Assembly: GCA_043753995.1 (NCBI GenBank)
Contig: JAYUVP010000249.1
Location: 39,684 to 103,683, forward strand
Source of the DNA: Fibrobacterota bacterium
GTDB lineage: Bacteria > Fibrobacterota > Fibrobacteria > UBA11236
Direction of reading: 5' to 3'
Length of the DNA stretch: 64,000 nucleotides
Below the pieces are notes generated by a model. It saw only the letters and a list, made by a program, of their open reading frames with translations, made no database searches and had not been told where the DNA came from. Of this stretch, positions 18,490 to 55,986 are shown one piece after another (positions within the stretch are counted from its first letter, which is position 1; each line of letters begins with the position of its first letter). Both the position numbers and the translations under genes were made by a program.

Positions 18490-21400
18490 TTAATTCGGCG
18501 GGGTTCCCCATTTGAACCAGGCATTCAAGGTGGCCAGTTCGGTGGGAGTGAGTTGCACACCCGAAGCGGGCATATATCCTGCGGATAGGAATGGACGATT
18601 GATGCGATCGTAAACCTTGCTTCGCGTCAAGGAGTCGGCGACAGTCGTGGAATCGCAAACCGCGGTGGCGTTCACCTTCCCGGGCCCGTGGCATGTCAGG
18701 CAGTAGGTGTTTAGAACGGTGGAAACGCCGGAGTTAAAAGGCGGCAAAACCGTATTGCGAGCCAAGGCATGAATAGGCCCGTCCGTGGCGGTGGCCGTGA
18801 TGGTTGTCGTGCCGGTGATCATTTTCAAGACTTGAACTTGGGTGGAGCTCACCACTTTCAAAACCGCAGGATTGCTGCTGGTCAAGGCATAGGTCTTGAG
18901 CGTGGTGGAATCTGGCGCGAAAACCGCTGTGCTTTGCACCGTCGTTCCCACCACGAGCCGTGGCAGGGTTAGGGCGATTCCCGTAGCCACCACATTCCCC
19001 ACGGTTACATTGAAATTCGCTGTTTTCGCCCCGTCGGTCGAAGTCACGCGCCATACCGAATTCCCCGCCGCTGTTCCCGATAATTGAGTTGTTCCTACCA
19101 GAGTGGCACCTGTACCTGACACCAAGGAAAGGGTATAGCCCTTATTTGTCGCCGATGACGGCGTCCAGGATAAAGTTGGCGCCTTGGTACTGCCAACAAA
19201 AAGGCTGAGGTTAGCCGCGCTCACGCTCTGCACCGGGACCGGGCCCACGACCACGGTGAAGGTGTCCTTGACCGTGGGATTTTGCACCGAAGTCGCGACA
19301 ATCTTCACCGAGCCCAATGCGGATGCCGTCACCTTGCCTCCGGGCAAAACCGTGACGCCCAAGCCCAAGGAGGTGAGGGTATAGCTCTTACTCGTCGCCT
19401 CCTCAGGAAAGGCGCCTACCTGTGGAATCACGGTGTCGCCGACTTGAAAGGAAGTGTCTGCTCCGACCAAGCTGTCGACGGGCCACGGAATCACGGTCAC
19501 TTTAAAGGACTTGGATTTCGCTCCTTCTTCGGTGGTCAATCCGACATTGGCCGATCCCACGTAGGCGCCATGAATTCGAATACCCGTGGGCGTGGTCACT
19601 GTGGTATCGAAGGAAACCAAGCTATAGCCCTTATTGCTCGCATCCCCCGGCGCAAAAGTCACCTTGGGGAATTTCGTGTCGCCAAGCCTCACCGTGTCTT
19701 CCGCCACCGTCACGTTTTGCAAGGGGACGAAATGGGCATTGAGCCAGCCCAGTAAAATGCCCAGCTGGCTGGGAGTCAAGTCGCCTTCAGCCGGCATGCG
19801 ATCCTTGTCGGTTTTCGCGAGTTGCAAGCGCCGTAGCGATTCCGCGCCCTTGATCAAGAAAACGCTGGAGTCTTGCAAGTTGAAAGTAATGGTGGGGCTA
19901 TGGCATTTGCCGCATTTCTCGGTGGTGATGGGCTTAACATGCGCGTCGAATTGCGGCGTCACGGCCATAGCGGTGAAGGTGGCCGTCTTGTCTCCATCTT
20001 CGGCGCGCACCGTGATTTTTGCCGAGCCCAATACCCCGGCCACCAGGCGATTGCCGACCGGTTTGATGGCGGCGCTATTGTCGCTTTCCAAGGTGTAATT
20101 CTTATTGGTGGCGTCATTCGGTAAGAAGACCACTCTGGGCGTGATGGTGTCGCCGAGGGCGATGGCGGTGTCCTTGGCAGAGAGGCTAAGCACCGTTTTC
20201 ACATTGCGGCCCAACCAGAGCAGCATCAAATCGAGATCGCGCTTGTCCATGGTGGTGTCGGCAGGCATATGCGCCGTGTTTCCGAAAGGCAAGGACAATC
20301 GCGCGAGGGCCTTGCTTCCACGGCCGACGAGTACAGCCGAGTCCTGCAGATTGAAGGTAATGGTGGGGCTATGGCATTTGCCACACCACTTCTTGGAAAT
20401 GGGTTGTATATCGGCAAAGGTTGGGCCTCGTACGGTCACCGTAAAGGTGTCCTTTGCTCCGCCGGCAGTTGCGGTAACCGTCACCTGCGCCGAGCCTTCG
20501 GCGCGCAAGGCGAGGCGCTTGCCGACGACACGGACTCGGGTGGTATCATCGCTTGCTATTTCAAATTCGCGCTCGGTGGCATTGGAAGGCATGAAGACGA
20601 TGTTCGGTGTAAGGGTGTCATAAAGCAAACCCGTGGTGTCCACCGCGTCCAGCGCAGTCGGGGCGATGCTCTTGTCGCTAATCGAGAATGAGAAGGTGGC
20701 CTTGGCGCTGCCACGGTTGGCCTGCACCGTCACCTGGGTGCTACCTGCGGCGAGAGCGACGAGGCGAAGCCCGCTCAGCACCTTGGCCTTGGTGGTGTCC
20801 GCTACGATCAATTGCACGCCCTTGTCGGTGGCGCCGTCAGGCTCCAAGGTCGGCGTGACTGTCACGGTATCACCGGTTTTGGCGCCGAGATTCGATACCG
20901 AGATGGAGCTAAGCAAGATCACCTTTTCGGTGATGGTCACTGAGAAAGACATACGGGCCGTGTCGCGATGGGCTCGCACTTCGATAGTGACCTTGCCCGT
21001 ATCACGGCATAGCACGGCATGGCCGCGCGTTCCCGCGCGCAAGGTGTCGACGGCATGCAGGCTGTATTCCTTGTCGGCGGCGGTGTCGGGACGCACGGTC
21101 ACCCGGGCATTCACCGTGTCTCCCGCCTGGCAGTCCAGATCTTCGGCTGTCAGTCGCGTGCGCGCCCTGTCTACCTGCGCCAAGCTGTCTTGATGCGCGA
21201 CACTATCGGCGAGGATGACGCTGTCCTTGCGGGCCTTGACGTCCACCACGGCGCTGTCGCGCTTCTGTCCTTTTTCGGCATAGTCGAAGCGCTTTTCAAA
21301 GGCCACGGCATTGTCTTTCAGCCCCGTGATGACGGCCGAAAAATTGGGCGACACGTTTTCGGGCAAATCGAATTGCACCGTGCTCTGGCCCGGCTTCAAA

Positions 21401-21597
21401 ACAAAGGTTTTGCTGAACAGGGTTTTGCCCGTGTCGAGTCCCTTAGGATAAAGCGAAACCTTCACGCTGTCGAATTTCCCCACCAGAGTGGAATCGAGCT
21501 GGAATTGCAATTCGGTTTTTTCCTTGGGATTGCTCAGGCAGGAAAATAGCCCGAGCAAGACAAAGCCGAGAAGCGAAAGGGAAAGCAGGGTTTTCAT
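18490..21597 (-). CDS. Giant surface lipoprotein with multiple Big_2-type Ig-like domains and three embedded CxxCH (PSCyt1-like cytochrome c) modules
   Basis: True start MKTLLSLSLLGFVLLGLFSC (lipobox) at 21597 overlaps the stop of the upstream gene (TAATG). Repeated Big_2-like segments (for example TLESDNSAAIKPVGNRLVAGVLGSAKITV). WCGKCHSPTITFNLQDS occurs twice, plus CLTCHGPG near the C-terminus, each followed ~40 aa later by MP...W, matching the PSCyt1 pattern. Confidence 0.6.
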   Translation of the reverse strand: MKTLLSLSLLGFVLLGLFSCLSNPKEKTELQFQLDSTLVGKFDSVKVSLYPKGLDTGKTLFSKTFVLKPGQSTVQFDLPENVSPNFSAVITGLKDNAVAFEKRFDYAEKGQKRDSAVVDVKARKDSVILADSVAHQDSLAQVDRARTRLTAEDLDCQAGDTVNARVTVRPDTAADKEYSLHAVDTLRAGTRGHAVLCRDTGKVTIEVRAHRDTARMSFSVTITEKVILLSSISVSNLGAKTGDTVTVTPTLEPDGATDKGVQLIVADTTKAKVLSGLRLVALAAGSTQVTVQANRGSAKATFSFSISDKSIAPTALDAVDTTGLLYDTLTPNIVFMPSNATEREFEIASDDTTRVRVVGKRLALRAEGSAQVTVTATAGGAKDTFTVTVRGPTFADIQPISKKWCGKCHSPTITFNLQDSAVLVGRGSKALARLSLPFGNTAHMPADTTMDKRDLDLMLLWLGRNVKTVLSLSAKDTAIALGDTITPRVVFLPNDATNKNYTLESDNSAAIKPVGNRLVAGVLGSAKITVRAEDGDKTATFTAMAVTPQFDAHVKPITTEKCGKCHSPTITFNLQDSSVFLIKGAESLRRLQLAKTDKDRMPAEGDLTPSQLGILLGWLNAHFVPLQNVTVAEDTVRLGDTKFPKVTFAPGDASNKGYSLVSFDTTVTTPTGIRIHGAYVGSANVGLTTEEGAKSKSFKVTVIPWPVDSLVGADTSFQVGDTVIPQVGAFPEEATSKSYTLTSLGLGVTVLPGGKVTASALGSVKIVATSVQNPTVKDTFTVVVGPVPVQSVSAANLSLFVGSTKAPTLSWTPSSATNKGYTLSLVSGTGATLVGTTQLSGTAAGNSVWRVTSTDGAKTANFNVTVGNVVATGIALTLPRLVVGTTVQSTAVFAPDSTTLKTYALTSSNPAVLKVVSSTQVQVLKMITGTTTITATATDGPIHALARNTVLPPFNSGVSTVLNTYCLTCHGPGKVNATAVCDSTTVADSLTRSKVYDRINRPFLSAGYMPASGVQLTPTELATLNAWFKWGTPPN

Positions 21598-22418
21598 TAT
21601 TTCACCTTGGTCACGACGGTCGTCGTTTGCGTGCCGGGATCGCTCATGAGCATAATGGTGGTGATGCCGACTAGAGTCACCGCAGCTGCACCTCCCGCCA
21701 CCCACAGCCAGGTTTTATTGCCTTTGCCGTCGCCGGAGGTCGCAGCGGCGTTACCCCCCGCCTGAGATGCCGGATCCGAGGTCTTGGCACCTGCCGACCC
21801 AATAACCGCATTAGCTCCCGTGTCAGGCCTCACCTCGATGAGATTACGCCCGGTCGAGTCAATGGGATAGCCGAAAGTCTTCAAGTTCTTGCGTACGCGC
21901 TCGCGCTCGGCCACGCTATCGCTGTCGCTGGCGGTGCGATCATAACGCTTGCGCACCTCACGAAACATGTCCAGAATGGCATCACCCACTTCGAGGTCTT
22001 CCAAATCTTGGCGCGGATCGAGCTTAAGCATTTGATACAGAAAAGATTCTGCCTTGCGACGCGTTCCCATGTCGGCGCCATACACCACACCGAGGTATTT
22101 ATAGATGAAAATGCTGTCTTCCTTGTCGCGAATGCGGCGATCGCGGCGCATGTTTTCCAAAAGGGCGATGAGTTGATCGAAGTCGCCGCCATGATAAAGC
22201 TCTTCCACCGTTTTTTTATCGAGCACGGCTGATTTTTTCAACTTGGTCGCCGAGGTTTTCGCGGGCGACGCAGCGGGGGTGGCCTTGGTCGTGTTCGTTG
22301 AGTTCGCGGTCGTAGTTGCGGGCGTGGCTTTTTCGGGTTGCGGCGTTGCCGACCATGAAGTCATGACCCCAAAAACCGTAAGCGCGAGAAACCCGGCCAA
22401 GGTGCTGAAAAACCTCAT
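21597..22418 (-). CDS. Hypothetical secreted, C-terminally membrane-anchored protein with TPR-like core (module A small subunit)
   Basis: Signal peptide MRFFSTLAGFLALTVFGVMTSWSA, then a Thr/Ala/Pro-rich linker, a conserved core (DSIFIYKYLGVVYGADMGTRRKAESFLYQMLKLDPRQDLEDL) and a C-terminal TM helix (WLWVAGGAAAVTLVGITTIML). Paralogue of 25268..25936. Confidence 0.5.
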   Translation of the reverse strand: MRFFSTLAGFLALTVFGVMTSWSATPQPEKATPATTTANSTNTTKATPAASPAKTSATKLKKSAVLDKKTVEELYHGGDFDQLIALLENMRRDRRIRDKEDSIFIYKYLGVVYGADMGTRRKAESFLYQMLKLDPRQDLEDLEVGDAILDMFREVRKRYDRTASDSDSVAERERVRKNLKTFGYPIDSTGRNLIEVRPDTGANAVIGSAGAKTSDPASQAGGNAAATSGDGKGNKTWLWVAGGAAAVTLVGITTIMLMSDPGTQTTTVVTKVK

Positions 22419-25267: not shown

Positions 25268-25936
25268 ATGTCTAGTCCTATTTCCCCCGTTTCTGTCCTG
25301 CTCTTTGCCCTTGGCTTGCCCGTATTCGGTGCAGCTCCCCAGCCATCCTCGGCGACGACTTCGGCACCGATGGCGAAAACCACCTCGTCCCCGAGTGTCT
25401 TAGATACCGCGGTGATTCATGGCGCCTATGCCGACGGCGATTTCGAAAAGGTGACGAGTTCGCTAGAGCCCATACTCGCCGCGAAAACCGTTTTGCCCAA
25501 GGCCGACAGCATTTTTCTTTTTCGCCACCTGGGCGTGATTTATGCCAAAGACCCAGGCACGCGCGAAAAGGGGAAATACTGCTTTCGCAAATTGCTCGAT
25601 GTCGATCCGCAAGCGCAAATTCTCGATCTCTATGCCACCGATGAGATCTATCAGGTCTTTCGCACCGTCCAGGCCGAATGGGACTTGTCTCATCCCAATG
25701 CCCAAAATCAAGCCGCCTCCTCCTCCAATCGCGTCTCCGCCGCTCCTGCTCCAGTCATGGAGCCCGCCGCTCCCCCTGCGGCCAAGCCCGCGAAGACGCA
25801 ATCCTGGAAACGCTATGCCGCCGTGGGCGGAGCCGTTGCTGTCACCGCCGGGTTAACCACCTGGTATTTGCTTTCTTCCCAAAAAGCCGACAACAAAACC
25901 GTGACTGTGGAAGTCGATCCCGCCCAGCCGAAATGA
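25268..25936 (+). CDS. Hypothetical secreted, C-terminally membrane-anchored protein with TPR-like core (module B small subunit)
   Basis: Signal peptide MSSPISPVSVLLFALGLPVFGAAP. Core DSIFLFRHLGVIYAKDPGTREKGKYCFRKLLDVDPQAQILDL is homologous to 21597..22418. C-terminal TM helix (YAAVGGAVAVTAGLTTWYLL). Confidence 0.5.
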   Translation: MSSPISPVSVLLFALGLPVFGAAPQPSSATTSAPMAKTTSSPSVLDTAVIHGAYADGDFEKVTSSLEPILAAKTVLPKADSIFLFRHLGVIYAKDPGTREKGKYCFRKLLDVDPQAQILDLYATDEIYQVFRTVQAEWDLSHPNAQNQAASSSNRVSAAPAPVMEPAAPPAAKPAKTQSWKRYAAVGGAVAVTAGLTTWYLLSSQKADNKTVTVEVDPAQPK

Positions 25937-28900
25937 ATAACATGAAAAAACTCTGTTTGCCCCAGTTTTTACGCCGCGCTGGCCTGCTCACGGGCATGGC
26001 TTTCGGTTTTGCCTTGCTGGCTTCTTTCGCCTTATTGCCCACCGCCTGCACCAGCACCGAGGGTGGCACTGATTTCGAAATTGCCTATGTCGATCGAGAT
26101 AATCTCACGTCTTTCGACTCCATTGTCGTGCTTCTCAATAAGGAGGGCTCCGAAAAGCCGGACACCCTTTTCAAGGGCAAGCTCACCGACAGCACGGTCT
26201 TGCGTCACTTGAAAGTTCCTGGTAACTTGCAAGGTACGGTGACTATTTCCGTGCAGGGCTTCAATCATGGCGAACTCGCCTTGGAACGCCATACCACGGT
26301 CGACGCGGACAAGCAAACCGTCGCCGGCACCGATTTGAAGCACAGCTCCCAAGGTCGCATTCGCTTCGCCGAACCTTCCCTGAAAATGAAAATCGGCGAT
26401 ACCGCTGCCATTCCAGCATTGGATATCGAGCCCTCCGAATGGAAAGACAAGGAAGTCACCTTCAGCTTTCAGGAAATCAAGGTGCTCGCTCTCATCGCCA
26501 AGAACAAGCTCGTGGGTTTAGCCCGCGGATCGGCGCGCGTGGTGGCCACCCTCGTCGGCGATAGCACCGTCACCGACACCCTTTTCGTGCAAGTCGTTGA
26601 TCCCGAGGCCGATAAAATCACCGTCCGCGTCTCGCCTGACACCTTGCGTCTCACCGCATTGGGCGCCTCGCTTTCCCTCAATGCCGAAACAACGCCTCTC
26701 TACTCGCCTCTCACCTGGAGTAGCGCCGATGATACTGTGGCCACCGTCGATGCCAATGGCTTGGTGCGTGGTTTGAAGGTCGGCAAGACTTGGGTTCGTG
26801 CCCGTTCTACTACCGACAGCTCCGGCGCGGACTCGTCTTGGGTCGTCGTATCGGGAGCCGTGCCAGTGGAAAGTGTCCGTTTCGCCCGCTCCACCCTCAG
26901 CTTATTCGAGGGCGGCGCGGCCGACAGCGTCAGCGTTCAAGTGCTCCCGACCGACGCCAATCCCGCGACTGGCCTGCGTCTCATCGGCAAGGCCGTGACG
27001 CTCAATGGCCGCCGCTTCATTCCCGTCGATACGGGATCCGCCATCGCCATCGCTTATTCCCTGGTGGACACGACCAAGACCGACACCTTGCGCATCAGCG
27101 TGAAGCAAGCCTTGACCATTCAATCCTTCCGGATTAAGCCGGACACCTTGCGTCTCTATCTCGGCGGGCCGGATAGCGCTTTCTCCATAGTTGTCGATCC
27201 TGCCTCGGCGGGCCTGGACGCGGTATGGCATTTGGCCAAGCTTGGCATTGCCAGAGTTTCCGATTCTGGCTTGGTGAAAGCCATTGGCGAAGGCCAGGTT
27301 TTAGTCTTGGCCCAAGCCCTCGCCGACAGTAGCAAGCGCGATACCTCCCTGATTCAAGTCGTGCGCGATATGCCCAAGCTCTCCGTGGGCAATGCCGTGG
27401 TGGCCAGCCCGGAATCCACGATCGATTTCGTGCCCAAGGTCGAGCAAGAATTCGGCGGGGTGACTCGGTTCTGGTGGGATCTCGATGGCAATGGCACTTG
27501 GGACGACAGCAGCGATGGCCTTAAAAACCTGAGCCGCAAATATGACGCCGTTGGCGAAACCACGACGCATTTCAAGGTGCGCGATGCCGAAGGCAATGAG
27601 GGAATGGCCGATCGCAAGGTGACCATTACCAAGGGGCCCCATGTAGTCATCCTGGTTCCTCCGGACGGCTTTGTCACCAATAAGAAAACCGTCGAGGTGA
27701 ATTGGGAAGTCGACCATGTCAAGCAAGACAAGCAAACTCAAGAGCAATTGACCCAAGAGGGCCCCAAGACTTTGGTGCGCTCCGCCAAGGATGCCAATGG
27801 CAATGAAACCGTCATTTCCATCACGGTATTTCTTGATACCAAGGCGCCCGAGCGACCCCTGGTGAGTTCGGTGTCGCCCACCAATAGCAAAACGCCGAAC
27901 TTCAGCTGGCGCAGCGGCGGCGGAAAAGGTGCCGGACTCTATCGGTATCAAATCGACGCTGAACCCGGCGCGAACCAAAGCGAAACCGGCGACACCACCT
28001 TGACCTGGCCCGCCGATTTGAATGCGGGCAGCCACACCTTGTTTGTACAGGAGCGCGACACAGCGGGCAATTGGTCGGCTAGCGGCAGCGCCAAGGTCAT
28101 CATCGACTTGACCGCCCCGCCAGCGCCGACGGTAAGTGCCGTCAGCGGCCCGAATAGCACGAATCTCCAGGTGACCTTTGTCTGGAAAGGCGCCGAGGAA
28201 GGTGCCCTGCGCTATCGCTATCAAATCGATAAGGAAAAATTCGAAGGCGGTGCCGTCGAGGTAGGGGACACCACGGTGACGGTGATCTTGACCGAGGGGC
28301 ATCATGCCTTTTATTTGCAGCAGCTCGACAGCGCCGGCAATGCTTCGACGCCGGGCAAGGCTTCGGTGAATGTGGATGTGACGGCCCCCAATAAGCCTTC
28401 CCTGCGTTCGCTCACGGGCGTCTGGTCCACGAATGGCAAACCCACTTGGATTTGGAAAACGGGTGGCGGCGCCGGCAATGGCAAATTCCGCACTCGCCTC
28501 GACACCGCCGACTTGAGCGCTAAGAGCTTTTTCACGGATACGTCCTTCACCCCCGCAGCTGCCATCGGCGAAGGCCCGCATCGACTCTTCGTGCAAGAAA
28601 TGGACAGCGTGGGCAATGTCTCACCTGCCGAATCTCTCACCATCACCGTGGACACCCAGGGGCCTTCAGCTCCGATTTGCCTTGAGCCCGCCGACAATGC
28701 CTGGGTCAATACGCAAAAGCCGACCTGGAAATGGAAAGGCGGCGGGGGCGGTGACGGACGTTATTATGCCTTCATCGCGGCAGCTTATACTCCTGACACC
28801 TCGACCCGGGTCACTGACACCACCCTTACTCCGCCGGCCAATCTCCCCGAAGGCCAAAAAATTCTCGGAGTGAAGGCCTATGATGCCGCAGGCAATGTCT

Positions 28901-30546
28901 CGCCCCTTACTACTTGCCGCGTTCGCATCGACGTGACGCCGCCCGGCACACCCGTGAGCGATACCAGCAATCACTTTTATGTCACTTCCGTGTTACCTAC
29001 GCGGAAATGGTCCCGCGTTGGCGGCGGCTCGGGCATGTATCGCTTCAAGCCCGATGATTCCACCTTGACTTCCGGCGCTACTTCCTTGGTCGGCCCAGGA
29101 AGCTGGACGGCACCTGCACCGCTTCCAGAAGGCAATCACTTCCTCGGCGTGCAAGAAATCGACAGCGCAGGCAATGTGTCGGCGCCGCTTTTCATGCCAT
29201 TCAAAATCGACACCACGGCTCCTGCCGCACCGGTCATCACCCAAGTGCAACCCGGTCCGTCTATCGGTTGCCCAAGCACGGTCGCTACGATCTGGAGCTA
29301 CACAGTTGCGGCGGATGCCAAAACCAATTATTACCAAATCGACTCGGCTGCCTTGCCCAGCCCGGTAGCTTCTCCGGTGAGCATCACCAGCTATCAAATA
29401 CCGACAAGCCCGTGCATTGCTGAAGGAGCACATTCCTTTAATATTCGCACGGTCGACAGTGCCGGTTTGCAGTCGCCCATAGCCTCTTCGACAACGCGCT
29501 TCATCACTAGGCAAGAAGCGACGGGGTTAACAGGAACGAGTGCCACCGGGCTGAATCTGGGTGTTTATAAGACGCTCTATTATTTGGGATACATCCGCAG
29601 TGGCGTAGTCAACGTGCTCACCGGAAAAGAAGTGGGCGAGATCCCGCTAAATTCAGGCACTTTGTCCACCCTTGTCAATCCGAATTATTTGCGCATGGCC
29701 GTAGGCCCCGGTGGAGAGCTCGGCATCCTCGACGGCATTCAAACCTCGGAAGGCACGGGCAAGGATTATGAATTGCATGTTCTCCTTCCCAGTGGAGAAA
29801 ATATTACCGTGGGCCTGCCCCGATGGCTGACCCTTCCCACCTGGTTCGCTTTGGATTTCAATGCCAAGGGTGATTTGTTTTTAGCCTACAATGACCTCGA
29901 TAATGAGGGGCGACTTTCGATTTGCATGGCAGTAAATCCCACAGGAGGAAAATCCACTTGCGTGGAACAGGTCCAGGGCATCAGTTCGCCCGGTGCCAAG
30001 CACATATTCATGACGGCGCGTCCCGCCGTTTTGGTCACCCTCGTGACTGCCGAGGGTTACCCTGAGGTTTATGGCCAGACCTCGGTGGAAGAAACAAAAT
30101 CTTATCCCCAAGTCATCACCGGATTGGAAAAAACCCCCATCAATCACTTCGGCTTGGGCGTGGTGAAAAGCACGGCTTCCATCATGAACTTCTCGCCCAC
30201 TGGTAGTCCGTTTTTTCAGGCCATCACCTTTAGGAATCTCACCGGCTGGACCGCAGGCAAGGTGCAAAGCACACCCGCTGCATTGGGCTCGGGCATGGGC
30301 GTCATGGATGTGGATCCCAGCGGCCGACCCTATGTCGTCATGGGGGGCAAAATGTGGGGTTATTCGGGCGGCAACTGGTATTCGGTTTCCACCAATGGCC
30401 ATGATTTCTCCGCCACACCCATGCTGGATTTGAAAGTGCGCGACGACGGCACGCCGCTGCTTTTCTATTCCACGGGCAATGCGGGCAAGCTCAATACCAA
30501 TCTCTTACGCACCGGCTTTGAATTGCCAGCCACCCAGGCGAGGTGA
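25933..30546 (+). CDS. Giant surface lipoprotein: N-terminal Big_2-type Ig-like domains, six tandem ~90-aa repeats, and a C-terminal ~350-aa domain of unknown function
   Basis: Start MNNMKKLCLPQFLRRAGLLTGMAFGFALLASFALLPTAC (lipobox) overlaps the stop of 25268..25936 (ATGA). The listed ORF 25678.. is an out-of-frame-context extension. Repeat consensus: TAPxxP...P(T/N)FxWxxGGGxG...YRYQID...(E/A)GxHxLxVQExDxAGNxS. Confidence 0.6.
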   Translation: MNNMKKLCLPQFLRRAGLLTGMAFGFALLASFALLPTACTSTEGGTDFEIAYVDRDNLTSFDSIVVLLNKEGSEKPDTLFKGKLTDSTVLRHLKVPGNLQGTVTISVQGFNHGELALERHTTVDADKQTVAGTDLKHSSQGRIRFAEPSLKMKIGDTAAIPALDIEPSEWKDKEVTFSFQEIKVLALIAKNKLVGLARGSARVVATLVGDSTVTDTLFVQVVDPEADKITVRVSPDTLRLTALGASLSLNAETTPLYSPLTWSSADDTVATVDANGLVRGLKVGKTWVRARSTTDSSGADSSWVVVSGAVPVESVRFARSTLSLFEGGAADSVSVQVLPTDANPATGLRLIGKAVTLNGRRFIPVDTGSAIAIAYSLVDTTKTDTLRISVKQALTIQSFRIKPDTLRLYLGGPDSAFSIVVDPASAGLDAVWHLAKLGIARVSDSGLVKAIGEGQVLVLAQALADSSKRDTSLIQVVRDMPKLSVGNAVVASPESTIDFVPKVEQEFGGVTRFWWDLDGNGTWDDSSDGLKNLSRKYDAVGETTTHFKVRDAEGNEGMADRKVTITKGPHVVILVPPDGFVTNKKTVEVNWEVDHVKQDKQTQEQLTQEGPKTLVRSAKDANGNETVISITVFLDTKAPERPLVSSVSPTNSKTPNFSWRSGGGKGAGLYRYQIDAEPGANQSETGDTTLTWPADLNAGSHTLFVQERDTAGNWSASGSAKVIIDLTAPPAPTVSAVSGPNSTNLQVTFVWKGAEEGALRYRYQIDKEKFEGGAVEVGDTTVTVILTEGHHAFYLQQLDSAGNASTPGKASVNVDVTAPNKPSLRSLTGVWSTNGKPTWIWKTGGGAGNGKFRTRLDTADLSAKSFFTDTSFTPAAAIGEGPHRLFVQEMDSVGNVSPAESLTITVDTQGPSAPICLEPADNAWVNTQKPTWKWKGGGGGDGRYYAFIAAAYTPDTSTRVTDTTLTPPANLPEGQKILGVKAYDAAGNVSPLTTCRVRIDVTPPGTPVSDTSNHFYVTSVLPTRKWSRVGGGSGMYRFKPDDSTLTSGATSLVGPGSWTAPAPLPEGNHFLGVQEIDSAGNVSAPLFMPFKIDTTAPAAPVITQVQPGPSIGCPSTVATIWSYTVAADAKTNYYQIDSAALPSPVASPVSITSYQIPTSPCIAEGAHSFNIRTVDSAGLQSPIASSTTRFITRQEATGLTGTSATGLNLGVYKTLYYLGYIRSGVVNVLTGKEVGEIPLNSGTLSTLVNPNYLRMAVGPGGELGILDGIQTSEGTGKDYELHVLLPSGENITVGLPRWLTLPTWFALDFNAKGDLFLAYNDLDNEGRLSICMAVNPTGGKSTCVEQVQGISSPGAKHIFMTARPAVLVTLVTAEGYPEVYGQTSVEETKSYPQVITGLEKTPINHFGLGVVKSTASIMNFSPTGSPFFQAITFRNLTGWTAGKVQSTPAALGSGMGVMDVDPSGRPYVVMGGKMWGYSGGNWYSVSTNGHDFSATPMLDLKVRDDGTPLLFYSTGNAGKLNTNLLRTGFELPATQAR

Positions 30547-32802: not shown

Positions 32803-35800
32803 ATGAGGAAGGGGTATCTCCGAAAATCCGGGGTGGAATCGCTATTCCCCAATTCCGGAATTAGGCAGGGCCTGCGCCTGGCTTGGCTGGGCCTTTTTTT
32901 TGTTTTTGCCACTTCTTTGCGCGCCGGGAATGTGGTGGATACCATAGCCAAGGCCGGCGATTTGGCATCCATTGGAACTCGTTACAGTAATAAAACCTTG
33001 GCCGCCAGCGATACGCTTTTTTTGCGCTTTGCCATACGTAGCGGATTCGGGTCTCTATCCCTGTCGAATTTCTCCGCTGCCGCGGTGGTGCTTGAGCCGC
33101 TGGAGCCATTCGATTCGACCTTGGCCTTGCATTTCACAACCGAATTCATGCGCATGGATTCGGTTGCGGCCACCGTGGTCATTCGCAATTTGAATATCAT
33201 CGCTGATGGCGCCAATCCCCGCTGGATAGTAGGCAACAACAACTATCCGAATGGTTCCTTGCTGATCTCGAAAGTGCAGGTATCGGGTTCATCGAGTTGG
33301 CCTGAAAAATTCATGGGTTGGTGGGGCGACTCCACTTCAACGGTGACCTTTCGTCAATGCGCCTTGGTGGCGCCGGCGGCCACCGGGATTTGGCGGTTCC
33401 TCAATCTGGGCCGGTTTGAAATGAGCCGCACCTTGATTCGCGTTGCCGGGCAGTTCAAGGTAGAGGCCTATGATGCCGTGACCTTTCAGGGGAATACTTT
33501 GGTGGCTTGCGGTTTTGATTTGGATGGATTGCCTACGGGCTATTCAACGGGTGTCGTGCAAGTGCAGAACAATCACTTTGTGCAAGCGGGCAAGGCGGCC
33601 ACTGAGCCCATAAATGTGGTGTCCAGTTTCGCCCTGCTGGACCCTACCTTGCAAACCGGTAATGTCCGTGCTGGTTATTCGGCTATTTTCAAGCCGGGCA
33701 ATGTCACTAATATTCTTGAGACGCCCAAAGACCGCTTCACTGCCGCCGACGGCGTTCCCGATTCCTCCGAAACCTGGCTGTGGCGTATCCCAGGCGATAC
33801 CCTGCGCGGCGCCTTCGCCTCGGGCGGCCTCCCGGCTTGGAATACGCGCCCCGGGGAGACCTCGCGGATATTCTCTCCGGGACTTCCCGCCGATTCGGGC
33901 ATCAAGCTGTCCTTCGCCGCCTGCGAAGTTCCCCGAAAGCTGGGATTGGTCTATGCGAAAGTCACTTATCCCCAGGAGTTGGTGTATCGTACGCGTTACC
34001 GTAGCGACACGGCTTTGCGGGTCACCGGCCCCGTCAGCGTCACCAAAATCCAATTCCCCGATGCCTTGCCCGTGGGCGACAATGCCGTCTTGCTTTTCGG
34101 GTCGAATCCCTTGCAAATCAAGGCCAGCAGCGATTCGTCGCGAGCGGTGTATACCTGGCCTCTCGACTATGTCGAGCCCGTGGTACCCGCGGCGGCCTTA
34201 ACCAGAGGAATTTCACGCGGTAAAAACATCGTTTTTCAGGCGGGAAATTCGGGCTCGGTGCAATGGCGCTTTCCGGAAGTGCAACGCGCCGGTCATGTGA
34301 TTATTACCGCCGACCCTGCTAAGAATTTCACTCGCCCCAATTTACGCCTGCTGACTTTAGAGGCGGGCAATACCGCCATCACGCTTTCCGGTGATTTCGA
34401 ACCGAAAACGGGCGACTCCATCACCTTGGGTCTCAAAGTGGTGAAAGCCTCTTGGCCATTCGATGCCGACAAAGTCGAACTGTGGCGGCAAACCGGTGGC
34501 GGCGATCCGGTTTCCCTGGGGCATTGTAAAGTGGATCCCGATTCGGGGCGATCCTTTTATCGCTGCGGTTGGGTATTGCCCCCCAAGGCGGGGCAGCCCT
34601 ATGGCGATATCAATGGAGCCTATTCGCTGACCGAAAAGCTCGCCGTGCCGGTAGGCAAAAGCGCGATGACCCCGTTCTCTTCCGCGTCGCTCAATGGCAT
34701 CAGCATGGAGTTCACCGCCAATCAAGGCTTTCAATTTTCAACCAGCTCGCAATTCCTCGATTCCCTGGCGTCGCCTTCCTTGGCCTACCTGTCCAACTTC
34801 AGCAAACGCGCGCTCTGGAAATGGCCGGGTCGCGAACAAGACTCTCTTTCCAAAGCGGTATTGAAGTGGACCGTGGCCGACTCGCAAGCGCAGCTCTTTC
34901 GCTTGAATTCGAAAACGGGCGAAGCCCTGCTTTATAAGGGCCAAGGTCGGCAGAATGGTGTCCTCTCCGTGGATTTGGGGCTGCATGATACCGATGTCTT
35001 TTTCGCCCGCAAATACAGCCTACCCCGCTATCTCAGCGGCGAAGGCTTTGACACGGCTTTTCGGGGTTTTGAGGTGAAGCATTTGCAGCTGCAGAATCCC
35101 TCGGATATGGCGATTGACTCTTTTTCCGTGTCAGGGAAAAAGTGGAGAACCGAGCGCGACATACGTAAAGCCTTGCGACTTTCCGGGCGGGGCCTGATTG
35201 TCTTGAGGCCCTTCGATATGATTTTGCCGGCGGCGAAAGACACGGTGGATTCGGTTTATTGGGTTCGCAGCCTTGGAAATGAATCGGAGATTCTGGATTC
35301 CGCAGCGGCCAATTGCAGCGGAAATTCCTGCACGGTCAAGGTTCCCAAATTCAAGGATAGCCTTTGCCTAGTCATGGTCGGCAAGTGGCCTACGAAAAAG
35401 CCCATCGACACGTTACCGCCAATAGACACCACCCAGAAGGGTGATACGGCCATTGACTCTATTCCCAAGCCGCCGGATCCCCAAACCAATCCGACCCCCG
35501 ATCCCCCTAAGGAACCCGAAATCAAGGTGGCCGTGCGTGATCAAGCGCAGGTCCTGGCCAACGGTACCATTCTCCTCATTCCCGGCATTCCCGATTCGCT
35601 GGCCAAGGCAACGAAGTCCATTACCGTGACTTGTTTAACCTTGAGTCCGCTCGGCGGGCCCCAGGCGGTGGCTTTGAAACCGCTAAAGCCAGGAGATTCG
35701 ATTTTACTCCGGCAGGGCAAGGCATGGGACTTGGGGTATCGTCTCAGTTACCTAGACAAAAAAGCAACGGTTTTGGCCCAGTCCGCCGATTCGCTTTTGC

Positions 35801-37065
35801 ATCAGCCTCTCAACTTGGTCATGAAGGAAATGAATGACACCTTGCCCAAATTGGCGAGACTGAATCGCCATTTAATGGGTTGGAGCTTGCCCGAAACTTC
35901 CGTCGACTCGGCCTTGGCCCTTTGGCTGGCAACGCCGAATCCGGCGGCCCGCGCCGATTCGCAATTGGAATTGCATGCCTTGAAGGCCGATGCGTGGAAG
36001 CCCTGGAGCCGCAATCAGCGGGTCAAGCCCGGCCTAGGGCTTTTGATGGCGTCGAAAAGCGAATTAAAACCTCGCTTTCCCGACAGTCTTCCCTTCCATG
36101 GAGAAGCGATTTCCCTGCCACTCGATAGCGGCTGGAATCTGGTCGCCAATCCTTTTCCTTTTCCCATAGCCCAAGCTTCCATCGTCGACACGACGCGACT
36201 CGATCGCTTTCAAGCCTTGAATACGAGTGAAGCCCAGCCCTGGCGGCAAGCCGACACGCTTTGGCCCTTTTGCGGCTATGCCGTATTCGCTACGCGCCGA
36301 CAAAATTTGGTTTTCGATCCGCTGAAATCGGCCGCGCCTCGCGCCGCCTCTAAAACCGCCGCCGCCGATGGCCGCGCCGCTGATTTGCTTTTGCGCATTG
36401 CCAGCAATGTCGGGGATGAAGCGGACTTGCGAATCACGGCTTCGCCGCGCGGAGCCGGTCATCTCGACGGCATGAAAACCCAGGCCATGGAGGCTTGGTT
36501 CGATGGAGGTAGGCCTTATCGCATTTTACCCGATCGCGACCCGTCGGCGACCCTAGCCGAACTGACTCTTCGATTGCCCGGAGCACGTCGCGTGCATGTT
36601 ACGGTAGCGTCTCTATTACCTGACGCCGCCGCCGGCACGGGCGCGGCTTGGCTTGACAAGCAAACCGGACTTTGGCGTATGCTTGAGCCGGATGCCTTTC
36701 TCGATTTGCCAGCTGGCCAATGGAGCTTTCAAATCAAGACGGGCCCTCCCGCCTCACTCCGGCAGCAATTGGCCCTCATGCAGCCGCGCGGGCCAGGTAG
36801 ACTGGCCCTGGCGCCCATGGGCCGCGATCGGGGCTTATGGCGCGTGGGTGTTCCTCCCGAATTGGGTTATGCGCGCTTGCGGGTCACGGTTTTTGATGGC
36901 ATGGGACGCATGCATTGGCGACAAGCCTTGTCGGTCTCGGGAGCGGGTTGGCATGCCTTTGTCCTGCCCGCCTTGCCGCCCGGGGTTTTCGTGAGCGTGA
37001 CGGCCGAACAGGCCGATGGCCTGCGACAAAAAATCACTCGTCGCGTCGGGCTGGCGGGGCCATGA
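32803..37065 (+). CDS. Very large secreted hypothetical protein (1420 aa), possibly beta-helix-rich, with a C-terminal beta-rich tail that could be a sorting domain
   Basis: N-terminal hydrophobic signal-like segment (LAWLGLFFVFATSLRAG). No catalytic motifs recognised. C-terminus: ARLRVTVFDGMGRMHWRQALSVSGAGWHAFVLPALPPGVFVSVTAE. Stop overlaps the start of the next gene. Confidence 0.5.
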   Translation: MRKGYLRKSGVESLFPNSGIRQGLRLAWLGLFFVFATSLRAGNVVDTIAKAGDLASIGTRYSNKTLAASDTLFLRFAIRSGFGSLSLSNFSAAAVVLEPLEPFDSTLALHFTTEFMRMDSVAATVVIRNLNIIADGANPRWIVGNNNYPNGSLLISKVQVSGSSSWPEKFMGWWGDSTSTVTFRQCALVAPAATGIWRFLNLGRFEMSRTLIRVAGQFKVEAYDAVTFQGNTLVACGFDLDGLPTGYSTGVVQVQNNHFVQAGKAATEPINVVSSFALLDPTLQTGNVRAGYSAIFKPGNVTNILETPKDRFTAADGVPDSSETWLWRIPGDTLRGAFASGGLPAWNTRPGETSRIFSPGLPADSGIKLSFAACEVPRKLGLVYAKVTYPQELVYRTRYRSDTALRVTGPVSVTKIQFPDALPVGDNAVLLFGSNPLQIKASSDSSRAVYTWPLDYVEPVVPAAALTRGISRGKNIVFQAGNSGSVQWRFPEVQRAGHVIITADPAKNFTRPNLRLLTLEAGNTAITLSGDFEPKTGDSITLGLKVVKASWPFDADKVELWRQTGGGDPVSLGHCKVDPDSGRSFYRCGWVLPPKAGQPYGDINGAYSLTEKLAVPVGKSAMTPFSSASLNGISMEFTANQGFQFSTSSQFLDSLASPSLAYLSNFSKRALWKWPGREQDSLSKAVLKWTVADSQAQLFRLNSKTGEALLYKGQGRQNGVLSVDLGLHDTDVFFARKYSLPRYLSGEGFDTAFRGFEVKHLQLQNPSDMAIDSFSVSGKKWRTERDIRKALRLSGRGLIVLRPFDMILPAAKDTVDSVYWVRSLGNESEILDSAAANCSGNSCTVKVPKFKDSLCLVMVGKWPTKKPIDTLPPIDTTQKGDTAIDSIPKPPDPQTNPTPDPPKEPEIKVAVRDQAQVLANGTILLIPGIPDSLAKATKSITVTCLTLSPLGGPQAVALKPLKPGDSILLRQGKAWDLGYRLSYLDKKATVLAQSADSLLHQPLNLVMKEMNDTLPKLARLNRHLMGWSLPETSVDSALALWLATPNPAARADSQLELHALKADAWKPWSRNQRVKPGLGLLMASKSELKPRFPDSLPFHGEAISLPLDSGWNLVANPFPFPIAQASIVDTTRLDRFQALNTSEAQPWRQADTLWPFCGYAVFATRRQNLVFDPLKSAAPRAASKTAAADGRAADLLLRIASNVGDEADLRITASPRGAGHLDGMKTQAMEAWFDGGRPYRILPDRDPSATLAELTLRLPGARRVHVTVASLLPDAAAGTGAAWLDKQTGLWRMLEPDAFLDLPAGQWSFQIKTGPPASLRQQLALMQPRGPGRLALAPMGRDRGLWRVGVPPELGYARLRVTVFDGMGRMHWRQALSVSGAGWHAFVLPALPPGVFVSVTAEQADGLRQKITRRVGLAGP

Positions 37066-50651: not shown

Positions 50652-52088
50652 CTACACGGTGATTTGCAAGAACTTGAGTACACCCGGGCAGAGGCCCAGG
50701 GCCAGGAGGAGAATGGCTAGCACAGCCATGGCAGCCTTTGAAGCGAAAGACAAAACGATGGCCGGTCGATCGGGCTCCGAGGGGGTCAGGTAGGCCTCCT
50801 TGACCAGCATCATGTAGTAGTAGAAAGAGACCACGGCATTGAGGACGGCTAGGGTAACGAGGATGTAACGTCCCTCCGCAGCAGCGGCGGAGAAGAGCAG
50901 GAATTTGCCGAGGAATCCGGCCAGGGGCGGAATGCCCGCCAGGGAAAACATGCTTAGGGCCAGCAGCGCCGCCAAGGCGGGATTGCGGCGGCCGAGGCCG
51001 CGCAGAGAAGCCATAGTCTCCGGGCCTTCGCGGCCGATAATGCCGATGACGAAGTATAAAGCCACGCTGGTGGCACCATAGGCCACCATATTGTATTGCA
51101 AAGCGACCCGAGCGGAGGTCGCTTCGCCAGTCAAGCCCACGAGGATATAGCCCACCTGGGCGATGGAAGAATAGGCCACGAAGCGCCGCAAATGGGTTTG
51201 CCGCATGGCGCCCAAATTGCCAACGACCATGGAAAGCACAGCCGCAACGGAAAGCACAAAAGTCAGAGAGGGACGAAGGGGGTCGAGCGGTCCCAGGAAG
51301 AGGACAGCCACGGCCGCCACGGCGGTGGCCTTAGAGCCAATGGACAGAAAGGCCATCACCGGAGTGGGCGAGCCTTGATAGACGTCAGGGGCCCACATAT
51401 GCAAAGGGACCATGGCCAGCTTGAAGCCCAAGCCACCCAGAAGCAGGAAGACACCAGCCTGAAGCGGACCACTGCCTGGATTCATGGTGACGGCTTCCAT
51501 TAAGGCGGGGAAACCCAGACTACCGGCCGCGCCATACAGGAAGGACATACCGAAGAGAGTTAGGGCCGAGGAGAATCCGCCCATAAGCACATACTTGGAT
51601 CCCGCCTCGATGGAATCGCCATCCTTGGGTTGGAAGGCGGCTAGAGCATAGAGCGGCAAGGTGGCCAATTCGATACCGATATAAAGCGTGAGAAGATCCT
51701 GGGCCGAGACCACGGCGAACATGCCGAAGGTGCAAAGCAATAGCAAGGCATAAAAAGTGCCGGGACGGGTCAGCAATCCCCGGGCGCTACCGCCTTCGCG
51801 GAAATATCCGGGGGATAAAAGCACGGTCGCAAAGGTCGCGAGCAGGAAGATTTGCTTCCAAAGGCCCGCTTCCGGGGAAATACGATAGCTTCCAACCACG
51901 GTCGTTACGTCCATAGCAATCAGGACTCCCTGAAGCACGAAAACGACGACAAGCCCTAGCCAGGCGACATGGAAAATCCCGCGACCGGACTGGTGGGCTG
52001 CCTTCCCGTCTTGACCCATTTCCAGGGCTAAAACGAGAATAGACAAAGCCAGCATGGCTATCTCGGGAAGGAAGGGCAGAAAATCCAT
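50652..52088 (-). CDS. nuoN: NADH-quinone oxidoreductase subunit N
   Basis: True start MDFLPFLPEIAMLAL; the listed ORF to 52295 is an extension. 14-TM antiporter-like subunit. Last gene of the nuo operon. Confidence 0.85.
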   Translation of the reverse strand: MDFLPFLPEIAMLALSILVLALEMGQDGKAAHQSGRGIFHVAWLGLVVVFVLQGVLIAMDVTTVVGSYRISPEAGLWKQIFLLATFATVLLSPGYFREGGSARGLLTRPGTFYALLLLCTFGMFAVVSAQDLLTLYIGIELATLPLYALAAFQPKDGDSIEAGSKYVLMGGFSSALTLFGMSFLYGAAGSLGFPALMEAVTMNPGSGPLQAGVFLLLGGLGFKLAMVPLHMWAPDVYQGSPTPVMAFLSIGSKATAVAAVAVLFLGPLDPLRPSLTFVLSVAAVLSMVVGNLGAMRQTHLRRFVAYSSIAQVGYILVGLTGEATSARVALQYNMVAYGATSVALYFVIGIIGREGPETMASLRGLGRRNPALAALLALSMFSLAGIPPLAGFLGKFLLFSAAAAEGRYILVTLAVLNAVVSFYYYMMLVKEAYLTPSEPDRPAIVLSFASKAAMAVLAILLLALGLCPGVLKFLQITV

Positions 52089-52095
52089 GAAGGTC

Positions 52096-55670: not shown

Positions 55671-55986
55671 GCAGCCCGTCCAAATCCACGATGTCGAGGC
55701 TGCGGCGATAGCGATGCAGGGCGATGACGATGGCGAGGGCCAAAGCCATTTCCGCTGCGGTGACGGCCACGGCGAATAAGGCGAAGATGGGCCCGGCTTC
55801 GCTGTCTCGGCCTGCCACACCAATACTCGTGCCGAAGCGGGCGAAAGCGATGAAGTTGATCAAGGCCGCATTCACCATGAGCTCCAGGGACATGAGGGCG
55901 GCGATCATATTGCGCCGCGTGAGAAGGCCGTAGGCGCCGATGGCGAAAAGCAAGGACGAAACGACGAGACAAACCGTGAGATTCAT
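55663..55986 (-). CDS. nuoK: NADH-quinone oxidoreductase subunit K
   Basis: 107 aa, three TM helices, MNLTVCLVVSSLLFAIGAYGLLTRRNMIAALMSLELMVNA. Confidence 0.85.
   Translation of the reverse strand: MNLTVCLVVSSLLFAIGAYGLLTRRNMIAALMSLELMVNAALINFIAFARFGTSIGVAGRDSEAGPIFALFAVAVTAAEMALALAIVIALHRYRRSLDIVDLDGLHG

Follow-up and report, generated by a model that had tools for sequence, protein, structure and literature searches.

The six tandem repeat units (90-98 aa each; aa 637-1192, nt 27841..29508) of a 1537-aa protein encoded in the window, the whole 64,000-nt stretch of DNA that was analysed, are divergent members of the bacterial Ig-like domain family Big_13 (PF19077), within a very large FN3-like subtype. 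Compared as a whole with the Pfam Big_13 model, the protein matches in five stretches with 100.7 bits (E=7.1e-29) against a gathering cut-off of 27 bits, and the novelty implied for the repeats by an earlier note, made from the letters of the DNA, thus gives way to a named family. The Ig/FN3-like fold proposed in that note is borne out by modeling: an AF2 model of the first unit (U1; pLDDT 95.3) is an Ig/FN3-like beta sandwich whose top PDB matches in Foldseek are structures 2yn3 and 2yn5 of the Salmonella giant adhesin SiiE (TMq 0.64-0.70, probability 1.00), with many FN3 domains coming next. A sequence profile built from the units likewise matches SiiE 2yn3 with E=1.9e-10, so that SiiE is the best match of the units in both sequence-profile and fold searches. 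SiiE BIg50-52 serve as the structural reference for PF19077. The family is itself illustrated by PDB 2yn3 and is counted among stalk-forming domains (PMC9704523).

Periodicity, signature and family of the six units

The internal periodicity noticed in the earlier note is real, and the extent first assigned to it (27850..29500) was right to within about 10 nt. U1-U5 detect one another by blastp with E-values down to 3e-15, the outlier U6 reaching a best E of 1e-4, and an HMM trained solely on unrelated external proteins gives the full-length units scores of 91 (U1), 73 (U2), 84 (U3), 69 (U4), 67 (U5) and 38 bits (U6), whereas the best of 1200 shuffled units scored 11.5 bits. Pairwise identity between units is 23-47%, and Tandem Repeats Finder, run on the gene, detected no DNA array repeating at about 270 nt; this lack of an array at the DNA level agrees with old divergence of the units, and the view that they did not arise by recent slippage stands.

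The subtype is marked by a T-x-P-x-x-P linker, a core [WF]-x-W in strand B and a Gly-rich B-C loop, and from strand F onward by L-x-[DE]-G-x-H-x-L-x-V (strand F itself), then D-x-A-G-N-x-S, and an [IV]-D that ends strand G. Of the signature elements in the earlier note, a T-[AP]-P-x-x-P boundary precedes U2, U3, U5 and U6, with variants at U1 (K-A-P-E-R-P) and U4 (T-Q-G-P-S-A-P). U1, U3 and U4 show [WF]-x-W with the Gly-rich loop clearly; in U2 and U5 this element is degenerate, and U6 lacks it. Y-R-Y/F is found in U1, U2 and U5 and is weaker in the other three. The stretch EG-x-H...D-x-AGN-x-S is present in U1-U5, with a D-S-V-G-N variant in U3, and its counterpart in U6 is D-S-A-G-L-Q-S. U1-U5 each end in [IV]-D; U6, which no unit follows, lacks this terminal Asp as well as the W-x-W and the Gly-rich loop and is the most divergent of the six. 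The "AGN-x-S" listed in the earlier signature corresponds to the D-x-A-G-N motif reported for SiiE (PMC6272769).

Taken singly, only U1 exceeds the Big_13 cut-off (39.7 bits, model positions 24-101). U2, U3, U4 and U5 score 19.7, 25.7, 23.6 and 23.0 bits, their matches lying mostly in the C-terminal half of the model (in U3-U5, positions 60-102 only), and U6 has no Pfam match. At E<=0.01, Big_13 is matched by 20 of the 22 units from the 1537-aa protein and its orthologues. A Big_2 identity of the units was rejected: Big_2 (PF02368) matches none of the six, and its matches fall outside them. The earlier observation that the repeats differ from the N-terminal Big_2 domains of the same protein was correct, Pfam assigning aa 231-293 to Big_2 and the repeats to Big_13.

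The size of the subtype became apparent from an exhaustive search with the unit profile, which returned 44,925 cluster representatives at E<=1e-3 and 2,995 at E<=1e-30, with as many as 56 subtype units in one protein. A word-indexed search with the unit alignment had given just three short matches, and in view of the exhaustive result this small number is an effect of the word filter. All seven of the top unit-profile matches that were scanned contain Big_13 (E 1e-31 to 1e-77), and many of the top matches carry a near-perfect signature. Conservation over 1309 units is 94% for D75, 89% for G78, 91% for N79, 98% for D91 and 100% for P3 (profile numbering).

Domain map, orthologues and the upstream partner

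The repeat region lies entirely within an open reading frame on the forward strand (25933..30546, stop codon included), with a likely ATG start at 25933 and a stop at 30544-30546; this frame and its full-length orthologues define the gene of a multidomain probable lipoprotein. Antisense ORFs within the same interval have no family matches and were rejected as real genes. An exact look-up of the 1537-aa protein found no record, and a whole-protein scan of 185,579 species-representative genomes found no relative. The window comes from an uncultured Fibrobacterota bacterium, and its nearest NuoL relatives belong to Fibrobacteria/Fibrobacterota MAGs, with 54-72% identity. Three full-length orthologues (P0001, P0002 and P0003, with 84%, 49% and 46% identity) were available for comparison.

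The protein begins with a signal peptide and lipobox (aa 1-39, ...LLPTA-C39; 25933..26049, +), read from the sequence as a basic n-region, a hydrophobic core and L-P-T-A-C. Pro at -3 is not canonical in a lipobox; it is kept, with the Cys, in P0001-P0003, and N-terminal lipidation at Cys39 would be expected from this reading. An N-terminal domain of about 100 aa follows (aa 40-142; 26050..26358, +), conserved in the orthologues and with no Pfam match, and then four Big_2-like Ig domains of about 84 aa each (aa 143-478; 26359..27366, +). The latter were delimited from Pfam Big_2 matches of 39.8 bits at aa 227-307 and a weak 14.9 bits at aa 393-478, together with internal blastp, which pairs the second segment with the fourth (E=4e-8) and the first with the third (E=0.002). 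A tentative PKD-like domain (aa 479-566; 27367..27630, +) is suggested by a weak PKD_4 match (E=0.041) and the pattern FWWDLDGNG...D.EGN. Between it and the repeats lies a short Ig-like domain (aa 567-636; 27631..27840, +) ending in ...FLD-T-K-A-P, with a weak Glucodextran_B match (E=0.0013); its C-terminal part matches the external unit HMM weakly, and it shares the terminal [IVL]-D-T-x-P junction with the six units.

The units themselves, all on the forward strand, are U1 (aa 637-726; 27841..28110), assigned from Pfam, the external HMM, AF2 and Foldseek; U2 (aa 727-816; 28111..28380), U3 (aa 817-907; 28381..28653), U4 (aa 908-1001; 28654..28935) and U5 (aa 1002-1094; 28936..29214), assigned from Big_13 and the external HMM; and U6 (aa 1095-1192; 29215..29508), assigned from the external HMM only. 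Cys pairs are found in U4 (C916/C995, kept in P0001-P0003) and U6 (C1113/C1161). The four relatives, 46-84% identical, each have exactly six units, and in P0002 and P0003 each is the orthologue of the unit at the same position. When the six units are compared with those of the orthologue of 84% identity, dN/dS is 0.096, and gene-wide values are 0.10-0.17, with the propeller computed on a gapped alignment. The units evolve under purifying selection, and the diversifying selection that had been offered as one option is contradicted by this ratio and by the position-wise orthology.

The remainder of the protein (aa 1193-1537; 29509..30543, +) had been described as an uncharacterised C-terminal domain of about 350 aa. 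The domain is indeed present, at about 345 aa, but is predicted from a structure model to be a seven-bladed beta-propeller. The model is of medium confidence (pLDDT 74) and was built on a 5-sequence alignment. The propeller has no family-level sequence match, and a word-indexed search with its alignment gave one match. Its structural neighbours are the Photorhabdus lectins PHL and PLL, CylK, Vgb lyase, integrin alpha and YncE, at 6-13% identity; at this distance no specific activity can be transferred to it, nor can the sugar-binding residues of the PHL/PLL propeller lectins.

Immediately upstream, and overlapping the main gene by ATGA, is a conserved partner gene (25268..25936, +) for a 222-aa protein that combines a signal peptide with a helical part and a TM helix at its C-terminus, and that has no Pfam match. 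P0002 has a homologue of it (54% identity) as immediate upstream neighbour, in a context that is otherwise different, and a gene of this type is found in the same upstream arrangement at a further locus (L001).

Comparison with SiiE and other readings of the units

As domains of the Big_13/SiiE type, the units are probably part of a fixed-length, lipid-anchored stalk that shows the propeller as a distal binding head; the stalk role, the surface exposure and a ligand-binding head are the most likely interpretation of this domain order. Six Big_13 domains, four Big_2-like domains, one PKD-like domain and one short Ig-like domain would together make a rod-like stalk of fixed length, tethered to the membrane by the N-terminal lipid anchor, and the C-terminal propeller would be the putative ligand-binding head of a surface adhesin-like protein. 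If each domain extends about 3.3 nm, as in SiiE, the six units would measure about 20 nm, and the whole series of twelve Ig-like domains would reach about 40 nm.

With the BIg domains of SiiE (2yn3, 2yn5) the units share a length of about 90 aa, an Ig-like beta sandwich, head-to-tail tandem arrays with short linkers, an L-x-D-G before strand F, the D-x-A-G-N after it and an Asp that ends the last strand. SiiE reaches 175 nm with its 53 domains; it has the motif 97D-x-A-G-101N, and a type I Ca2+ site where domains meet makes its rod rigid (PMC6272769, PMC5466336). Here, in contrast, there are only six diverged units. The nearly invariant Asp of D-x-A-G-N corresponds to SiiE D97 and the unit-terminal Asp to SiiE D117, the two residues that in SiiE bind the interface Ca2+ and stiffen the rod. 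The D97-type motif is present in U1, U2, U4 and U5 (D-S-V-G-N in U3, D-S-A-G-L in U6; across the family D 94%, G 89%, N 91%), and the D117-type Asp in U1-U5 and in the preceding Ig domain (FLD), with a frequency of 98% across the family. In place of the third SiiE Ca2+ ligand, the B-C loop residue D43, the units have the Gly-rich loop, D43 having been placed by counting along the sequence and not from coordinates; in the profile alignment SiiE "LESD" stands opposite this loop, and of the six units U2, U4 and U6 alone have acidic residues in it. A stiffening role of the two Asp residues as in SiiE, in a modified form, is likely by analogy, with a candidate Ca2+ site at the domain interface; the replacement of D43 and the missing type II site count against Ca2+ binding. 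The type II site of SiiE (D16, D24) has no counterpart, in that the first 20 positions of the units hold no conserved Asp pair. The two proteins also differ in export, SiiE using type I secretion with a C-terminal signal and the present protein an N-terminal lipoprotein signal. RTX/T1SS families have no match in Pfam or NCBIfam, and a T1SS adhesin (RTX/Bap-like) was rejected on account of the N-terminal signal with its Cys39 lipobox and the C-terminal propeller.

It is unlikely that the units are themselves the binding elements, attaching to glycans or matrix in a multivalent, zipper-like manner, instead of forming a passive stalk. Such a role has been proposed for SiiE, with GlcNAc and sialic-acid structures bound through many of its BIg domains (PMC6272769, PMC5466336), and the whole protein matches the NCBIfam model barrel_OmpL47 (NF047446) with 64.1 bits against a cut-off of 40; the model takes its name from a Leptospira surface protein that was investigated together with OmpL37, an adhesin that binds elastin (PMC2935396). 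However, binding by SiiE is tied to its type II Ca2+ sites (PMC5466336), which the units lack, their conserved positions belong to the core and the interface with no obvious surface patch, and a dedicated distal propeller is already predicted. The OmpL47 match is, moreover, limited to a shared C-terminal half-motif (...G-x-H-x-L-x-V-x-A-x-D-x-A-G-N...; 15-21 bits per unit, model positions 23-68 only), and orthology with OmpL47 was rejected since the equivalog Lepto_OmpL47 reaches 38 bits against a cut-off of 250.

There is still less to recommend the view that the units are not Big_13 but fibronectin type III modules, as in the linkers of bacterial carbohydrate-active enzymes, and we consider it very unlikely. 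The unit profile does match the FN3 domains of Bacillus chitinases (1k85, from ChiA1, 3.5e-5; 6bt9, 5e-4), and after SiiE most Foldseek neighbours are FN3 domains. The ChiA1 domain of Bacillus circulans (fold match to U1, TMq 0.67) shares with the units its fold class, a P-x-x-P start, the strand-B Trp and a D-A-A-G-N-x-S at the F-G turn, and we read the order P-x-x-P...W...Y-x-[YF]...L...V-x-A-x-D-x-A-G-N-x-S as a parallel to the FN3 consensus. Yet Pfam fn3 (PF00041) has no match at E<=1 for the whole protein or at E<=0.1 per unit, whereas Big_13 matches; SiiE outranks FN3 in sequence and fold searches alike; the external proteins have fn3 and units of this kind called as separate domains; and neither the terminal [IV]-D-T-x-P junction nor the Gly-rich loop is a feature of FN3 modules. 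Big_13 versus FN3 is in any case a nuance of classification inside one superfamily more than a different mechanism. A "periscope" array of variable length, or an origin of the repeats by recent slippage, with a copy number differing between strains, has almost nothing to commend it: Big_13 is among the domains of periscope proteins (PMC9704523), but there is no tandem repeat in the DNA, the units have diverged to 23-47% identity, and the constant six position-wise orthologous units in all four relatives contradict it. This explanation was rejected.

Significance for the probable Big_13 stalk and the Fibrobacterota protein

Beyond the Big_13/SiiE-type stalk preferred here, there is a smaller chance that units with the W-x-W, Gly-rich loop, D-x-A-G-N and terminal Asp make up a distinct and very large subfamily with a rebuilt interdomain metal site, set in an undescribed Big_13-adhesin architecture that serves as a substrate-adhesion module of Fibrobacterota. 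The Gly-rich B-C loop, perhaps together with the conserved Asp where strand C ends, would in that case replace SiiE D43; the architecture would use an N-terminal lipid anchor in place of a T1SS, carry an orphan propeller of seven blades as its head and be encoded together with a small, conserved membrane-protein partner; and the module could be specific to the lineage.

For annotation, the 1.7-kb "unknown signature" turns out to be a common bacterial Ig-like stalk domain, a result that matters little beyond annotation itself. Pfam Big_13 does, however, under-detect this abundant subtype, U2-U6 falling below its cut-off where a subtype HMM gives 38-91 bits, and many such stalks consequently appear as unannotated sequence. 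The analysis also yields a full domain map of a rare, probable Fibrobacterota surface protein, with a putative lipid anchor, twelve Ig-like domains and a predicted seven-bladed propeller. The propeller head and the small upstream partner gene are almost orphans, and are the parts worth study for the biology of this protein.

The six-unit array and its gene

The repeat region lies inside a single long forward-strand ORF (25678..30546) whose start codon is likely the ATG at 25933 (MNNMKK...), giving a product of 1537 residues. Cutting residues 637-1192 at the T-x-P-x-x-P junctions delimits six units, U1-U6, of 90, 90, 91, 94, 93 and 98 residues (27841..29508); the limits of 27850-29500 proposed in an earlier note were right within about 10 nt. 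Identity between unit pairs is 23-47%. By blastp, each of U1-U5 retrieves the other four (E 3e-5 to 3e-15), with U6 the outlier (best E 1e-4), and Tandem Repeats Finder detected no DNA-level array in the region. As an independent check, an HMM made solely from units of unrelated proteins scored the full-length U1-U6 at 91, 73, 84, 69, 67 and 38 bits, the top one of 1200 shuffled control units reaching 11.5 bits. The periodicity of six units is thus genuine and well in excess of chance, and the tandem repeats of about 90 residues described earlier are borne out by both comparisons.

As read from the sequence, the N-terminus passes from a basic stretch through a hydrophobic core to L-P-T-A-C39 (residues 35-39, 26035..26049, forward strand), probably a lipoprotein signal despite the non-canonical Pro at -3. 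That Pro is kept in the metagenomic relatives P0001-P0003 (LLPTAC, LLPLAC and LAPLGC), a departure from the canonical lipobox rule that could mean either that Fibrobacterota have a relaxed lipobox or that the processing is of another kind. Residues 40-142 match no family, residues 143-478 hold four Big_2-like segments of about 84 residues each (one clear Pfam match, one weak, and two by internal similarity alone), residues 479-566 are weakly PKD-like, and residues 567-636 form a short Ig-like domain with the same C-terminal junction, ...L-D-T-x-A-P, as U1-U6. Antisense ORFs of 100-431 residues inside the gene, including one overlapping the repeats (27301..28596, reverse strand), have no Pfam or other family match and are most readily explained as a side effect of GC-rich forward-strand coding sequence.

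Family, fold and abundance of the units

At the protein level the product is a member of Pfam Big_13 (PF19077, 'Bacterial Ig-like domain'), matching over five stretches with E=7.1e-29 and 100.7 bits against a cut-off of 27, and the novelty implied in the earlier note, which turned on no named repeat family being matched, is not supported. Since this whole-protein scan places Big_2 at residues 231-293 alone, the units are indeed distinct from the N-terminal Big_2 segments, and Big_2 membership of U1-U6 was rejected, as were fn3 membership by sequence and T1SS adhesin membership of the protein. NCBIfam barrel_OmpL47 reaches 64.1 bits summed (cut-off 40), added up from partial matches, worth 15-21 bits per unit, to the shared C-terminal half-motif; an OmpL47 orthologue was rejected, the equivalog model giving 38 bits against a cut-off of 250.

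Scanned one by one, U1 scores 39.7 bits with Big_13, above the cut-off, U2-U5 score 19.7-25.7 bits, and U6 has no Pfam match; U3-U5 match just the C-terminal half of the model, their N-terminal halves being unmatched. Over the protein and four orthologues, Big_13 is found at E<=0.01 in 20 of 22 units. U1-U6 thus belong to a subtype with poor coverage by the Pfam model: where Pfam gives 20-40 bits or nothing, an HMM made from unrelated members of the subtype gives 38-91, so that the current Big_13 model under-detects these abundant units with W-x-W and a Gly-rich loop.

A profile of the 22 units, compared with all PDB sequences, ranked BIg50-52 of the Salmonella giant adhesin SiiE first (2yn3, E=1.9e-10), followed by FN3 domains of two Bacillus chitinases (1k85, 3.5e-5; 6bt9, 5e-4). 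In the literature PF19077 is exemplified structurally by 2yn3, and the domain is among listed stalk-forming repeats (PMC9704523). The AlphaFold2 model of U1 is a six-strand beta sandwich (pLDDT 95.3) for which Foldseek against the PDB again placed SiiE first (TMq 0.64-0.70), then many FN3 domains, in agreement with the Ig/FN3-like fold suggested earlier. The AGN-x-S signature noted earlier is the D-x-A-G-N motif already described in SiiE, in which D97 serves as a ligand at the type I Ca2+ site between consecutive domains (PMC6272769, PMC5466336).

The signature is also common. An exhaustive profile search of 1.84 billion cluster representatives returned 44,925 proteins at E<=1e-3 (16,362 at E<=1e-10; 2,995 at E<=1e-30), with 56 unit copies in one protein; all seven high-scoring matches scanned were Big_13 (E 1e-31 to 1e-77), and many matches carry the near-ideal signature P-T-W-T-W-x-S-G-G-x-G-x-G-x-Y-R-Y-K-L-D ... 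L-[ST]-E-G-x-H-T-L-Y-V-Q-E-x-D-x-A-G-N-W-S ... I-x-I-D-T. The repeat therefore belongs to a very abundant FN3-like Big_13 subtype. A relative at NCBI carries the name 'Ig-like domain-containing protein [Chitinispirillaceae bacterium]'. Counted across 1309 near-full-length units and numbered by the profile, the conserved positions are P3 (100%), D91 (98%), D75 (94%), T1 (93%), G65 and N79 (91%), G78 (89%), P6 (87%), L62 (82%), H67 and G31 (63%), D40 (62%), W25 (56%) and W23 (51%).

Age of the array and a possible Ca2+-stiffened stalk

Among 5.8 billion proteins only five full-length-like relatives were found, all metagenomic. P0001, P0002 and P0003 (84%, 49% and 46% identical) have exactly six units each; P0004 and P0005 have four each, with a weak fifth match in P0005. 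Each unit is closest to the unit of the same rank in P0002 and P0003, U5 against P0002 being the one exception, and the array is therefore older than these lineages and not homogenised. In a gapped alignment with the gene for P0001 (on contig L001), dN/dS is 0.096 for the six units, 0.139 for the N-terminal Ig part and 0.169 for the C-terminal domain. Of the two histories once offered for the divergence of the units, great age without recent slippage is supported by this orthology and by the lack of a DNA-level array, and diversifying selection is contradicted by the dN/dS; purifying selection acts on the repeats, which are old. A variable-length 'periscope' array was rejected on the same orthology and lack of DNA-level repeat.

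The analysis shows a fixed tandem array of six Ig-like domains of the Big_13 type, with a signal and its conserved Cys at the N-terminus of the protein and, at the other end, a predicted propeller. Its twelve Ig-like domains would form an extended stalk, anchored by the N-terminal lipid and presenting the propeller as a putative binding head, and would work like the non-fimbrial adhesin stalks of the SiiE/Bap type. SiiE measures 175 nm with 53 domains (PMC6272769), or about 3.3 nm per domain, at which the six units would extend about 20 nm and the twelve domains about 40 nm.

Profile alignment to SiiE equates D75 with D97, N79 with N101, D91 with D117 and [DE]64 with D86, and of the three type I Ca2+ ligands, two are near-invariant. 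The terminal Asp is absent precisely in U6, which no unit follows, and the Ig domain before U1 does end in it, as would suit a role at the interface. D43, the third ligand, lies in the SiiE B-C loop (placed by counting along the sequence) and aligns here to the Gly-rich loop; the units lack the type II site specific to SiiE. Ca2+-dependent stiffening of the rod, needing a modified site, is plausible from these alignments.

Cys pairs in U4 (C916, C995; 28678..28680, 28915..28917), U6 (C1113, C1161; 29269..29271, 29413..29415) and the propeller (C1331, C1343; 29923..29925, 29959..29961) are kept in P0001-P0003. The U4 pair links the first and last strands of its domain and could be a mechanical clamp disulfide; U4 is also the one unit whose strand C does not end in Asp.

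The C-terminal domain and the partner gene

The C-terminal domain (residues 1193-1537) has no Pfam or NCBIfam match and essentially no sequence relatives. AlphaFold2 predicts an all-beta domain (pLDDT 73.9, pTM 0.79, from a 5-sequence alignment), for which Foldseek ranked the seven-bladed Photorhabdus lectins PHL/PLL highest (E=4e-8, TM 0.55-0.60); identity is 6-13%, so the fold alone is transferable, and no activity. The domain, earlier called uncharacterised, remains so by family but is now predicted to be a seven-bladed beta-propeller.

The window is chromosomal, carrying yidC, mnmE and nuo genes, and its NuoL is nearest to those of uncultured Fibrobacteria/Fibrobacterota MAGs (54-72% identity). 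Directly upstream of the main gene, with its stop codon overlapping the ATG at 25933 through ATGA, is a 222-residue ORF (25268..25936, forward strand) with a signal peptide, a short helical region, a Pro/Ala-rich linker and a C-terminal TM helix, and no Pfam match. A 54%-identical homologue lies directly upstream of P0002 (locus L081, 6553..7293), where the rest of the neighbourhood is unrelated, and the arrangement in L001 (5549..6220) is alike; the two genes look like a conserved two-gene module.

Elsewhere in the window, a 1420-residue ORF downstream of rfbB (32803..37065, forward strand) and its 1427-residue counterpart in the syntenic L001 have no Pfam match. The reverse strand encodes a 1071-residue ORF (18490..21705) that combines a Big_2 match with c-type cytochrome matches (Cytochrome_C7 and, C-terminally, Cytochrome_CBB3), probably the "first giant lipoprotein" of the earlier note, and a 450-residue ORF (59257..60609) matching NuoB at residues 20-174 and NuoC at 323-440, apparently a fusion of NuoB to NuoC across a spacer of some 150 residues, in a nuo operon (nuoL 53616..55823; nuoN 50652..52295).

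The repeat signature itself is of little interest; more lies in the propeller head, which is an orphan, in the small conserved gene that partners it upstream, and in the loop at the interface, apparently rebuilt.
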